Shown in pieces: positions 6,001 through 18,000 of a stretch of DNA of 64,000 bases. This stretch comes from an uncultured Coxiella sp. Its GTDB lineage: Bacteria; Pseudomonadota; Gammaproteobacteria; Comchoanobacterales; Comchoanobacteraceae. The stretch is from contig CACBGS010000005.1 of the NCBI GenBank assembly GCA_902538855.1, forward strand, positions 435 to 64,434, read 5' to 3'. The position numbers are program-made. Position 1 is the stretch's first letter, and each line of letters begins with the position of its first letter.

Positions 6001-9000
6001 TACCCATGAATGAAATTAAACAATTGTGGCTGCTCTACATGCAGTTTTGCTGCATTGAGCAGCCACGCATTAACTGACGCCCCAAGCTTAGCATGTAAAT
6101 ATGGATAAATTTGACCCGGCACCAAAGCCCATTCCAATTCACTAAAAGAAACCAGTGCGCCCTCTTTAGCAACAACGTAATCACTTATAGCAAGTAAGCC
6201 AAGCCCACCCCCATAAACATTTCCCTGCATAGCAAGCACTATCCATTTATTTAATTCCGCCAAAGCAAGTAAACAACGACCAACAAGATAATTAAACTGC
6301 TCCAAACCCTGTAAGTCTCCTTGATCACATAGAGATACTAGCTCAACTAAATCTAACCCAGAACAAAAAACACTTCCTACTGCAGAGATTTTAACTACAA
6401 GCTTTTCACTTGCAGAGGCCTGATGTACACAAGCTAATAATTGCGTTAGCATTGTTGTATCAAGCGCATTCAACTTTGCAGGTCTATGCAATATAATCTC
6501 TATATATTGACTATTTTCTTTGTAAATAACAGACATAACTACACCCTAGACAACCCAAACCTATGCTCTGGCAAGTGCAAAGTCTTACTATGGGCGAAAA
6601 CAGATAACCAAAAAAATAAAACACTTTGCGTATCCTCAGGACGAATAATACCATCATCAAAACCTTGTGCACTAACATGTAAAGATGCCGAGCGCTTCTC
6701 GTACCGCTGAAAAAATTTATCATGCAGTGCTTTTTTCTGCTTACTAGAAAAAACCTTACCTTGTTTTTGTATTTTTTTTGCTTTGATACTAACCATAAGA
6801 TCAGCAACAACTTTTGCACCCATAACAGCAACATTGGCATTAGGCCAGGATAACACAACATCTGGAGAAAAAGAGCGACCACACATTGCATAATAACCAG
6901 CACCAAAACCTGCCCCAATTTGTAAAGTTATTTTTGGCACATCAGCATTTGACATATATTGAACTAAACGCGAACCTGCTTTAATAATACCTGCAGATTC
7001 ATATGCCCTACCCACTTGAAAACCTGTGGTATTCATCACAAACAAAAGTGGTATTTTCCTCACTGTACAACGATCTATAAACTGGCAAGTTTTATGAGCA
7101 GCATCAACATCAATAGGACCATTATTGGCAATGACCCCAAGGGCATGACCACCAATAGCACCAAAACAACATACCATATGAGTACCATATAAAGGCTTAA
7201 AAATCTGAGCATCATCATCAAGCAAAGATAACAATAACCCCATAACTGATATAGGGTGAGCATAATCAGCATCAACACACGCAAGCTTAGTTAACCAGGC
7301 CTCCTGCTTAGCAAAACGACTAGGCTTATACTTAGGCCATGTTATAGTTTGCAGATAAATACGCAGCGCCTGAACAGCTTCAGCTTCAGTTGCAACACTC
7401 TCGTCAGCTAAACCATTAGCTACATGCACATCCACACCACCTAGTAAATCAGCTGAGTTACGCTCTCCGACTGCACCAAAAACCAAGTCTGGCCCTGCAA
7501 GAAAAACATACGATTGATTCCTAATAAATATAGAGTGATCAGTAAGACCAACAAAATAGGCACCGCCAGCAGTACAAGTACCATAAACAACAGCAATAGA
7601 TGGAATAGTAGCAGCATTATGTCTAGCCATTTTTTGAAAAACACTACCCACATCTATAAAAGCAGCTGCTGGCGCATCCAGATTTAAACCTGCAGATTGT
7701 AATAGATATACAACTGGCAACTTTTGCTTATAAGCAAGATCAAGTGCTCTATGGATTAACCTAATACAAGACAAGCTCAATGCACCTGCTTTCACAGCAG
7801 GGTCATTAGCTATAATCATGCACAGACGACCTGCAATTACTGAAAGACAAACAAGAGTATTCGGCAAATCACCAACACCACTAAACGGCGAATAAAAGTA
7901 GATAAACTCACAATCATCGATACAACTTCGCACGCGACGAGCAGCGTTATCACAGGTAGATGCCACATGATCAGCAGCATATCTTTGCCACCAAACATCT
8001 GAAAAATCAATAACATTAACCAAAAAACACCCCTAAATAATTACAAAAAACTTATCAAGAAAATACAACAAAACCCTATTTCATTACAACCCATATCCTA
8101 CACAATATATATTAATAATGAATGAAATCTGACACCTGAGTATATATTAAGGCTTACAAGGTTGACAACCAAGTCCATTAGGAGGTAAGCTGAGTTGTTT
8201 GCCACCTATGTTTGAATATTTATCCCAAGCATTATAGCCATACGTGATATTAATTCGTAAGGAGACTTTACATGAAAGCAAAGGGAACGCCTAGAAGCAT
8301 ATTTTCGAGCATCAGCAGTTATTTTTTTTATTCATCCGAACCACCAAATTATAAAAGCCTAAAAGAACAAAACAAAACAAAAACAACAAAAAACACTTTC
8401 ACAAAACTAACAAACTTCATTAAATATTTTAATCCGCTTAACTCCCAAATATACAAAAATCTATCTTCTGCAATCACAGAAGCAAACAAAATATTAGAAA
8501 ACCCTAAAGACTTAATTACGCCACCAGCTAAAAGTGCTGTTGAAAAAGAATACTATAGTAAAAAAGATGTTTGGTCATTTTGCTGGGAGACATACTACAA
8601 CAACAACAAATTACCACATTTAATTGCAATATTACTTGCCTCAATAGCAATTGGCTGCCTACCCTTTGTATACTTAAACCTCTTCAAACTATATTTTGAC
8701 AGCCAGATCAGCAGCAATTATGCATTTTTCATTAACTGCACATTAGCTGTAACCACATGGGGAATTCTTAGAACAGTTTTAGAAAATAAACTAACAGAAT
8801 TATCAGAGCGATTATTCATAAATGTGTCTTATAAGTTCATACAAAAAGCTAATACAAAACTTTGTGAATTCCAAAGCTTACGCGAGCGCAAACAAGAGGA
8901 AAAAAATTCTGAAAGGGACAACTTTCAAGAAACTGTTGGCCAAGTTTTTAAACAACACATTGTTATCATCAGTAACATCATCAATTACAGCTTAAAAGCC

Positions 9001-15000: not shown

Positions 15001-18000
15001 TCATGATATTGCAGTAAAAGCCAATATAATAGAAAAACCTAACAAAGCAAAGAACAAAGCCCCTATTAAAGAAGATACAAAAAGAAAAAAAACAGACAAA
15101 GGTATATGGAATAATTTAACTAGACTAGTATGCTAAAATATAACTGATTAGAAGCCGTGTTTAATCGCGGCTTTTTTTTATCTGAGCTGCCCAATTAAGT
15201 AAACTACTTTTTAAACCTTCATGCTCTAAGCTATCAGCTAATTTTTTTAACGATGAAGACAACTGCCTTGGCAACTTAGGCAATTTCTTATTAGTATTAT
15301 TTGCCGCAAACACTACAGGTAATAGCTTAAATACCACCGTATCAACCTTTGGCAAATGGCCAGTCTTAGCACAAGCACAGAGAATATCATCTATATATTG
15401 ATTCATAGCAAGATAATGTGTCGCAGAGGAAAGATATACTATTAGCTTAGCTTTTGAATACACGACTGATGCAATATTAGCTACAGCATTAGGATGAATC
15501 ACGCTACATACCAACTTATGAAAAGCTTTTGCTTGTACAACTTTGTGCGTATAGTTTTTTACTACTACGCTATCACTAACAGACGTTACCATATCTTTCT
15601 CCTAATACTGAAATATAATAACAACACATACAGCATAGTTGAAGTTCTATTGCTATAAAGTTGTTTTTAAGCTATAATAAATGCAATTTTTAGCAATAGT
15701 ATCAGCGTGTTTTCAAAATTACTAAAATTCTTTCTCGGCAGCAAAAACGATCGATTCATGCGCAAAATGCGCCCTACTATCAAAGCCATCAATGCGCTAG
15801 AAGATAAATTCAGCAACTATAGTAACGAGCAATTACAACAGCTATGTCAAGAACTACGTGAACGTGCGCAAAAAGAACCCTTAGAAAAACTTATTGACCA
15901 AACCTTTGCTATGGTCAGAGAAGCAAGTAAACGCACACTAAAACTAAGACACTATGACGTACAATTAATAGGTGGTCTTGCATTGCATTATGGCAACATA
16001 GCAGAAATGGCAACAGGTGAAGGTAAAACATTAGTAGCGACACTACCAGTCGTGCTCAATGCACTCAAAGGTGACGGCGTACATGTAGTTACTGTTAACA
16101 GCTACCTAGCAACTCGTGATGCCCAATGGATGGGTAAAATATATGAATTTCTTGGCCTAAGTGTTGGTGTAATTGTACCCAATATGACAACAGAAGATAG
16201 AAAGCAAGCCTACCAAGCCGATATCACTTACGCATGCAACAATGAGCTTGGCTTTGACTATCTCAGAGATAATATGGCCACAAGCAAGCAGGAGCAACGT
16301 CAAAGAAAACTAGCATATGCTATTGTTGACGAAGTCGATTCTATATTAATTGATGAAGCAAGAACACCTCTTATCATTTCAGGACCTATTGGTAGCAGCT
16401 CTGATAATTATAAAAAAATATACCCACTAATTGCACAACTAAGTGATAGTTCTGAGACCCCAGATGTTACAATAAACATTAAAGATCGCCAAGTGCAACT
16501 AACAGAACATGGCCACGAAAACATTGAAAATATACTAAAAAAAGAAAAAATACTGAGCTCTGAAAAAAATCTATATGCTAATGAAAATGCCATGTTACTA
16601 CATTTTGTTGATGCATGTTTACGCGCAAAATTTATTCTTAAGCGTGACATAGACTATATTGTAAATAACAAACAAGTAATTATTATAGATGAAAATACTG
16701 GCAGAGCCATGCCTGGAAGACGCTGGTCAAATGGTAATCATCAAGCCGTAGAAGCTAAAGAGCATGTACCTATACAAGAAGAAAATCAAACACTGGCATC
16801 TATCACCTATCAGAATTACTTTAGATTATATAAAAAGCTTGGTGGCATGACAGGGACAGCAGATACTGAAGCCACAGAGCTAGAAGAAATCTACCGTCTA
16901 CAAGTATTAGTTATACCAACGAATAAAAAATGCTTACGCATAGATCATGATGACTTGATCTATATGTCTAAAAAAGAAAAATATGCAGCTATTGTAAAGG
17001 AAATTATCAGCCGTAATAAAAAACAACAACCTATATTGATAGGAACCACATCTATTGAGGATTCAGAGTATTTATCTACCCTATTAAAAAAAGAAAAAAT
17101 ACCACATCGTGTCCTTAATGCTAAGCAACATGAAGCTGAAGCTGAGATTATTGCCTCAGCAGGTGAGCCTGGAAAAGTAACCATAGCTACCAATATGGCA
17201 GGTAGAGGTACCGATATTATGCTTGGAGGCAACCTTGAGCATCAATTACAAACCAGTAAAAATCCAGAAAAAACTAGAGAGCAGTGGCAACAGCAGCACC
17301 AAACTGTCATCGAAGCTGGGGGCTTACATCTACTCGGATCAGAACGCAATGAAAGTAGGCGCGTAGACAATCAACTACGTGGGCGCTGCGCAAGACAAGG
17401 TGATCCAGGAAGCTCACAGTTCTTCTTATCATTAGAAGATCACTTATTTAAAATTTTTCCACAAGGCGTAATCAACTTTATTAAAACTTCAGCTAATGAA
17501 GATGGCTCACACCTGCAAGCCCCCATGCTTAATAATGCTATTGCTAGCAATCAACAAAAAATGGAAGCTCATTATTTTGATATTCGTAAACAAATACTTA
17601 AGTATGATGATATTGCCAATGAACAACGCACCGTTCTCTATCAACAACGTAATGAACTACTTGAACTTGAAAGTATCCATGACCAAATCTTTAAGTTAAT
17701 TGAAAAACAATGCATTAACATCTTAGAACAATCACAAGTTCACGGGGTTGTTGCCATGGACAAAGCTAAAAACAAACTAAGCGAACAGTTTTTAAGCCAT
17801 CCATTTGAAGAACACGAAAAAGCAGAGAACATAGCTACAATGAGTCATAGACTAGCAGACTACTACTATACAAACTATTGTAAAAAAATGACAGTGATCC
17901 CTGTTAACGAGCATCACAACCTTGAAAAAAACCTACTACTGCAAATACTAGATCACCACTGGAAAGAACATTTAGTTATAATGGAAGATTTAAGAGAAAG

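Follow-up and report, generated by a model that had tools for sequence, protein, structure and literature searches.

ATP-binding cassette (ABC) systems fall into classes defined by a few membrane-domain folds, and their ATPases hydrolyse ATP solely as head-to-tail dimers in which Walker A faces the partner's signature motif. To our knowledge, paired ATPases are matched to membrane subunits in all described ABC cases. Type IV exporters such as MsbA, Sav1866 and Atm1 carry an N-terminal membrane domain and a C-terminal ABC ATPase on one chain, and in LptB2FG and LolCDE one ABC ATPase is shared by two membrane proteins that are paralogs. SbmA/BacA (SLiPT) and Rv1819c present one exporter-like membrane domain without and with an ABC ATPase, respectively; in SbmA the helices number 8, the intracellular loops are short and coupling helices are lacking (PMC8442886). 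The gene cluster considered here lies in a 64,000-nucleotide (nt) stretch of DNA from an uncultured Coxiella sp. (positions 435 to 64,434 of contig CACBGS010000005.1, assembly GCA_902538855.1; the whole stretch is hereafter called the window) and encodes three proteins, g1, g2 and g3, which belong to a common membrane-domain family and of which g1 alone bears an ABC ATPase. Such a composition, one ATPase-fused membrane protein with one or two ATPase-less paralogs in neighbouring genes, could not be matched to any described system. The three consecutive plus-strand open reading frames (ORFs; 1017, 583 and 585 residues) lie exactly where a first-pass annotation of the window had placed them; its term 'giant' for the membrane proteins overstates the size of g2 and g3.

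The kinship of g2 and g3 is plain (49% identity over 575 residues) and defines what we call family B. That of g1 (family A) emerges only from profiles. Pairwise, g1 matches g2 weakly and over the first two helices alone (28% over 106 residues, E 1e-3), there is no significant match between g1 and g3, and a four-sequence B profile compared with g1 alone is likewise non-significant. When the profiles of families A and B are compared with each other, hhalign returns a probability of 88.6% and an E value of 2.6e-6 over 314 columns; a second run scored 48.5 over 424 columns, pairing residues 1-483 of B collinearly with residues 83-541 of g1, and the highest score among its controls (2 reversed and 20 block-shuffled) was 25.7. 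A joint MAFFT alignment of both families is collinear up to the end of the membrane domain, and three motifs recur in both: YNxxxLP ahead of helix 1, (N/Q)P between helices 9 and 10, and LxP following helix 10. Judged by these profiles, g1 is a B-type membrane domain followed by an ATPase, and the paralogy of the three proteins is obvious for g2 and g3, distant but real for g1. The first-pass annotation had come to the same family by eye, from a block S(T/L)(S/G)FNL(Y/V)(Y/F)(D/E); this block is indeed found in register in all three window proteins, but within the g1 family the window's copy alone retains it. The five hairpins of the domain show no detectable internal repeat.

Family-averaged hydropathy gives 10 hydrophobic segments forming these five hairpins, in agreement with the earlier view that all three proteins are polytopic. 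In g2 the hairpins fall at residues ~40-65/76-95, 174-195/197-222, 286-310/313-337, 398-418/432-456 and 475-493/497-520. Their loops are 1-13 residues long and hold a single Lys or Arg; the segments between hairpins are 18-78 residues long and, together with the termini, hold 54. The predicted topology is N-in/C-in, with essentially all soluble mass cytoplasmic and almost no periplasmic exposure, and this strong positive-inside bias places the ATPase of g1 in the cytoplasm. After its 10 helices, g2 ends in a K/R-rich cytoplasmic tail of 63 residues and has no ATPase. In g1 a hydrophilic N-terminus of ~110 residues precedes the ~10-helix domain (residues ~111-600), which is followed by the ATPase (residues ~640-920) and by a polar, fast-evolving tail of ~100 residues.

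It appears that the ATPase of g1, though very divergent in sequence, has kept its catalytic apparatus. The motifs are listed in Table 1. Across lineages with ~22% overall identity the GKS of Walker A, Gln724 of the Q-loop, the [NS]GG core of the signature (residues 854-856), Asp881, Glu882, the D-loop Asp and His915 are all invariant. The remainder of Walker A varies: the relatives read AANSTGKS, ADNSTGKS and GPNAVGKS, and in 3 of the 4 sequences Ala stands in place of the first consensus Gly. The signature of the family is [NS]GG[TLE]F, in which the GG core and the position are preserved and the Leu and Gln of LSGGQ are lost. From Q-loop to signature there are 130 residues in g1, ~100 to 190 in its relatives and ~60 in the window's own exporter (described below). 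The first-pass annotation had assigned an 'aberrant' ABC ATPase to the first gene only; the domain is absent from g2 and g3, and the adjective is fair for the sequence, given the Ala in Walker A, the [NS]GGxF signature and the 130-residue segment. NCBIfam models give many weak ABC matches on the Walker A and the Walker B/H-loop regions of g1, and the SMC_N model of Pfam matches weakly too. Against the Protein Data Bank (PDB), a profile of the g1 family matched 131 chains of ABC/SMC type at E<=1, all in the C-terminal domain, the top ones being the ABCF protein ExpZ (1.6e-8), Uup, ABCF1, MJ0796, HI1470, ModC, Rad50 and ABCE1. By its motifs and profile matches the C-terminus of g1 is a real ABC-superfamily ATPase that falls in no curated subfamily, and its catalytic apparatus is, on the pattern of substitutions, kept by selection though the sequence is very divergent. 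Because g1 retains both Walker A and the signature, a g1 dimer would be the minimal engine.

Table 1. Features of the g1-g2-g3 cluster and its immediate surroundings (window coordinates)
Feature	Position	Strand	Remarks
AGGAG ribosome-binding site of g1	8260-8264	+	7 nt before ATG
g1 (family A), 1017 aa	8272-11325	+	ORF call
g1 membrane domain, aa ~111-600	8602-10071	+	profile-level homology to the whole g2/g3 membrane domain
g1 Walker A ARNGVGKS, aa 675-682, Lys681	10294-10317	+	GKS invariant in all lineages
g1 Q-loop YFPQ, aa 721-724	10432-10443	+	Gln724 invariant in family
g1 signature-like NGGTF, aa 854-858	10831-10845	+	family [NS]GGxF; canonical LSGGQ
g1 Walker B LLILDEP, aa 877-883	10900-10920	+	Asp881 and catalytic Glu882; D-loop Asp next
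g1 H-loop IDHD, aa 913-916	11008-11019	+	His915 invariant in family
Promoter-like block CTTGCAtT-N16-CTAgTATA	11375-11405	+	~155 nt upstream of g2; cross-lineage conservation
AGGAG ribosome-binding site of g2	11548-11552	+	7 nt before ATG
g2 (family B), 583 aa	11560-13311	+	ORF call
AGGAG ribosome-binding site of g3	13367-13371	+	7 nt before ATG
g3 (family B), 585 aa	13379-15136	+	ORF call; tandem paralog of g2
GC-rich hairpin followed by T-run	15150-15175	no strand	directly 3' of g3; likely cluster terminator
Orphan gene, 143 aa, between g3 and secA	15161-15592	-	converges with g3 on the same hairpin/T-run

Among described systems the type IV exporters are closest in plan. Like them, g1 joins an N-terminal membrane domain to a C-terminal ATPase in one chain and has all the catalytic motifs, the signature in an altered form, and the first six helices of the cluster proteins are predicted to pair into three hairpins, with hardly any periplasmic loop and with long cytoplasmic polar stretches. 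The hydropathy of these six helices overlays that of the window's own exporter (hairpin, long polar stretch, fused double helix, long polar stretch, hairpin), which is a resemblance only, and AlphaFold2 secondary structure, of low confidence, has helices of 49-56 residues. Unlike type IV exporters, the cluster shows no sequence or profile similarity to their transmembrane domain, its inter-hairpin segments are longer (60-78 aa), g1 has [NS]GGxF rather than LSGGQ and a helical subdomain doubled in length, and ATPase-less paralogs are encoded beside it. Four extra hydrophobic helices (g1 residues ~449-598) stand between helix 6 and the ATPase, and we know of no described exporter type with four more helices ahead of its ATPase. 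The proposal that the membrane domain derives from that of a type-I (type IV) ABC exporter found no support in sequence: the Pfam family ABC_membrane (PF00664) has no match at E<=1, and a profile of five genuine exporter transmembrane domains, taken from the retrieved loci and including the window's own, scored 16.5-16.8 against either family, which is the level of reversed controls (16.1-18.3), a true distant exporter scoring 50.8.

SbmA/BacA and Rv1819c resemble the cluster in that one membrane-domain family exists both with and without an ABC ATPase. They occur in different organisms, whereas g1 and B form an adjacent, conserved gene set, and against the 8 helices and short loops of SbmA stand the 10 helices and the long, conserved cytoplasmic segments (60-78 residues) of the B proteins. 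No sequence match links the membrane domains of either family to any PDB entry, and the PDB includes SbmA structures. In LptB2FG and LolCDE the ATPase is a separate chain and the periplasmic domains are large, while in the cluster a third paralog carries it as a fused domain and hardly any periplasmic loop exists; Pfam and NCBIfam scans of the cluster proteins showed no sequence similarity to these complexes. ABCF, ABCE1 and Rad50/SMC proteins, which supply top PDB matches of g1 and, in the case of Rad50/SMC, place their coiled coil where g1 has its enlarged segment, are soluble, ABCF and ABCE with tandem ATPases; g1 has one ATPase following ~10 membrane helices.

The cluster is conserved as a unit. 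An exhaustive HMMER search with g1 found 6 proteins among 1.84 billion representatives, 3 of them fragments 81-91% identical to g1, and P0012, P0014 and P0015 were found by this search only; word-indexed searches for homologs, started from g1, from g2 and from the B alignment, gave back just the query proteins and one relative. The picture of synteny is built on the contigs of the HMMER-found proteins and on three metagenome loci. In the window the order is carboxyltransferase (minus strand), g1, g2, g3, the 143-residue orphan (minus strand) and secA. It recurs in L074/L079 from Tara Oceans, with a g1 homolog of 1059 residues and two B genes, and L001, from a public run assembly, holds the C-terminus of g1, two B genes, the orphan and secA. 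In L075/L076/L077 (Tara) the carboxyltransferase is followed by a g1 homolog of 898 residues, one B gene (605 residues), the orphan and secA, and in L080 the C-terminus of g1 is followed by one B gene, the orphan and secA. L081, with one B gene and the orphan, is silent on g1 because the contig stops 204 nt before the B gene. Families A and B are thus adjacent in every contig long enough to tell, none has one family alone, and the cluster occupies the same chromosomal place in at least 4 other marine metagenomic lineages. Profile homology and synteny uphold both the paralogy and the conservation as a unit, on either of which the first-pass annotation had said that it could fail. What does not stand is the three-gene set as the original state, since the more distant relatives have g1 with a single B gene.

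Outside these lineages no member of family B was found among GTDB species representatives, and a scan of viral contigs gave no match. A SecA scan retrieved relatives of at most 60% identity, none of which carries the cluster; the best, at 60%, come from metagenome-assembled genomes labelled Legionellales. An affiliation of the window's organism with Legionellales is only weakly indicated, and the cluster is, across the collections searched, restricted to one clade of uncultured marine bacteria.

The genes of this unit evolve at very different rates. Identity to the window is 80-84% for SecA, 62% for the carboxyltransferase, 36-39% for the B proteins and 23% for g1 in the L001/L074 lineage; the respective values in the L075/L080 lineage are 73-75%, 48%, 25-27% and 22%. 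The ratio of nonsynonymous to synonymous substitution rates (dN/dS) is 0.03 for secA, 0.10-0.22 for the B genes and 0.55-0.68 for the C-terminal half of g1 as a whole. Between two close relatives the core of g1 from signature through Walker B to H-loop has 0.15-0.25, the inserted segment 0.7-0.9 and the C-terminal tail 0.7-1.06. The low ratios of the B genes and of the g1 core indicate purifying selection and show that these are not chance ORFs; by the same measure the cluster genes are functional and fast-evolving, g1 above all outside its catalytic core. The fast segments (window 10444-10830, g1 residues 725-853, and 11029-11322, residues 920-1017) also vary in length between lineages. A motif G-S-P-x-N near the C-terminus of g1 occurs in 3 of the 4 lineages with sequence there (window, L074, L001).

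In a neighbour-joining tree of B proteins rooted on the single-copy lineages, g2 groups with g3 (100% bootstrap) and the four B proteins of L001/L074 group together (100%). Either the second copy arose by independent tandem duplication in the two lineages or gene conversion has homogenised the copies. On this tree and the gene content of the relatives, the ancestral unit is g1 with one B gene, and the duplication of B is later.

The ~235-275 nt that separate g1 from the first B gene are poorly conserved except for one element, CTTGCAnT-N16-CTAnTATA, invariant in 5 of 5 lineages. It is unique in the window, where 0.01 chance matches are expected, and offers a candidate -35 (TTGCAT, 11376-11381) and -10 (TAGTAT, 11399-11404) at 17-nt spacing, though it falls below a consensus promoter scan, its -35 being too weak. 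We infer that the B genes may have in this block their promoter or operator. The g1-g2 spacer matched nothing in Rfam, and downstream of the block no RNA structure is conserved. A 44-residue ORF before the first B gene in L001 (1848-1982) and L074 (5391-5525) is probably spurious, as it overlaps the B start and has no counterpart in the window.

The explanation that we prefer, tentatively and at somewhat less than an even chance, is that the cluster encodes a lineage-restricted, fast-evolving inner-membrane machine of ABC type, active in export or flipping, in which the B proteins are extra membrane subunits or obligate partners of the g1 engine. In this scheme g1, a ~10-helix domain fused to a divergent but catalytically intact ATPase, would hydrolyse ATP and act at least as a homodimer. 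The g2 and g3 proteins, which have the same membrane domain without the ATPase, would be expressed from their own promoter-like element, take part in the same process as g1, and most likely be added membrane subunits of its complex, which would move a substrate across the inner membrane or flip it within that membrane.

Several observations weigh against this proposal. ABC_tran (PF00005) reaches 17.7 bits on g1, under its gathering threshold of 25 bits (in the relatives P0012 has no match and P0014 has 12.3 bits), and the ATPase of g1 resembles non-transport ATPases of the SMC, Rad50 and ABCF kinds as well as those of transporters. The membrane domain matches no Pfam or NCBIfam family, and searches of all PDB sequences with profiles of family B and of A and B jointly gave no membrane-domain match; within these three resources it is a new sequence family without a relative. 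AlphaFold2 models were unusable, with a predicted local distance difference test (pLDDT) of 33.8 for g2 (from a three-sequence alignment) and 36.5 for g1 alone. Foldseek searches with them gave E>=0.45 and TM-scores of ~0.1, non-significant and, at such pLDDT values, meaningless; the Atm1, ABCB8 and ABCD1 chains among the g2 matches (E 0.6-4) are non-significant as well and were not counted as evidence. The rate of g1, 23% identical where SecA is 80-84% identical, is unusual for a housekeeping transporter, and the neighbouring genes offer no clue to a substrate. Finally, contact between g1 and the B proteins is something we infer, and with a promoter-like block of their own and a spacer of 235-275 nt the B genes would not require strict co-transcription with g1.

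These last features also fit a situation in which the proteins are related but independent, which we regard as unlikely though a serious possibility. There g1 would be a self-sufficient homodimeric ABC transporter, g2 and g3 would be stand-alone transporters, driven by ion gradients, whose ATPase was lost or never present, and their adjacency would stem from tandem duplication only. Besides the promoter-like block and the spacer after g1, this agrees with the copy number of B (1 or 2), which varies independently of g1, with the very different rates of B and g1, and with the precedent of ATPase-less relatives of exporter domains acting as secondary transporters, proton-driven SbmA/BacA versus ATP-driven Rv1819c (PMC8442886). 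Yet g1 and B lie side by side in every informative lineage despite 22-27% identity, B keeps its long conserved cytoplasmic segments (60-78 aa), unlike SbmA, and no PDB entry, SbmA included, could be tied to it by sequence. The arrangement of g1, a C-terminal ATPase fused to a polytopic domain with long cytoplasmic helices, is in turn the classic one of exporters, and it tells against g1 being an ABC/SMC-like mechanochemical ATPase anchored in the membrane, one without a transport role that would help to organise the membrane, to sense or to regulate, the B proteins being its membrane scaffolds. We think this distinctly unlikely, even though the best PDB and Pfam likenesses include ABCF, ABCE1, Rad50 and SMC_N, a large variable segment (~100-190 aa) sits at the position of the Rad50/SMC coiled coil, and periplasmic loops are nearly absent. 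The likenesses are limited to generic motifs and rank no higher than those to MJ0796, HI1470 and ModC. PADLOC likewise gave generic ATPase-motif matches only, of which the weak one to mad3 (g1 E 1.2e-3, P0014 4.5e-9; none for g2 or g3) could be cited for such a role, but the cluster stays at one syntenic place amid housekeeping genes and has no further defence genes around it.

It is very improbable that the proteins are secreted effectors inserted in the membrane of a eukaryotic host, the first-pass annotation having also considered host-targeted membrane proteins. The positive-inside pattern (54 vs 1) is near-perfect and bacterial, the helices are as hydrophobic as those of the window's own ABC exporter rather than less so, purifying selection acts on the ABC ATPase motifs, and the window ORFs scanned gave no sign of secretion-system genes, the genome being incomplete. 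We know of no translocated effector with so many helices. What could speak for effectors is the restriction to one lineage and the very fast evolution, with the polar tail of g1 near neutrality (dN/dS 0.7-1.06), as well as a genome with many large orphan ORFs and three tandem DUF3431 genes and the origin of the relatives from marine metagenomes. That the ORFs are decaying or spurious is almost certainly wrong. It could be suspected from a near-identical strain in which all three genes are fragmented: L082 (ENA contig 'myrmidon_3 NODE_236', coverage 0.13) is conspecific with the window (93-97% nucleotide identity), and the database fragments 81-91% identical to g1-g3 stem from it. However, every gene on this contig is split, secA too, with ~240 indels per 7-13 kb relative to the window, so the fragmentation is sequencing error; pseudogenisation in this indel-ridden, low-coverage contig was rejected, and the fragments are not pseudogenes. 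Intact orthologs in at least 4 lineages, with dN/dS of 0.10-0.22, refute decay as well.

If the preferred account of a joint g1-B machine is taken further, the cluster might represent a new ABC architecture, with a 10-helix domain unlike types I-VIII in fold and an asymmetric complex of powered g1 and unpowered g2/g3; we consider this rather doubtful, and equally doubtful its corollary that the architecture is confined to uncultured marine, probably host-associated gammaproteobacteria and evolves fast at its cytoplasmic insert and tail. In any case, g1 and B present one new membrane-domain family, fused to an ATPase and ATPase-less side by side, kept over long evolutionary time. Should the copies co-assemble, they would provide a natural test of the number of powered subunits that such a machine requires, and, unlike with SbmA and Rv1819c, the divergence of ATP-driven and ATPase-less relatives would be visible within one genome. 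The membrane domain would add a new family, with a very narrow distribution of one clade.

As to the expression signals of the cluster, the AGGAG that the first-pass annotation had seen 6-8 nt before each ATG is spaced exactly 7 nt from it in all three genes. Upstream of g1 no block is conserved among the relatives. The hairpin and T-run behind g3 are likely the terminator of the cluster; they also overlap the 3' end of the convergent orphan gene. This orphan is kept at the same position in all relatives (145-157 residues, 31-43% identity) and has no family match. The G+C content of the cluster region, 34-36%, is slightly low against the window's range of 34-42%.

Several other features of the window deserve mention. 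The exporter used as internal reference for layout, Q-loop-to-signature distance and helix hydrophobicity is a canonical ABC half-transporter with ABC_membrane and ABC_tran domains (57598-59370, minus strand), so ordinary exporters also exist in this genome. Three paralogs with DUF3431 (PF11913, E 1e-9 to 2e-12) stand in tandem on the minus strand (22191-23165, 23361-24335 and 24357-25409), and two copies occur at the matching place in L001 (11723-13664). Five large minus-strand ORFs have no Pfam match: 27153-29363 (736 residues), 30371-31603 (410), 34439-38290 (1283), 49347-51917 (856) and 51923-54400 (825). They suggest that the genome is very divergent and encodes many proteins specific to its lineage. 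LptD often sits beside SurA in other gammaproteobacteria, and the 736-residue ORF adjoins a weakly matching SurA-like gene. A tmRNA gene (41446-41838, minus strand; Rfam RF00023, 152 bits) lies ~7 kb from smpB (33988-34464, plus strand).

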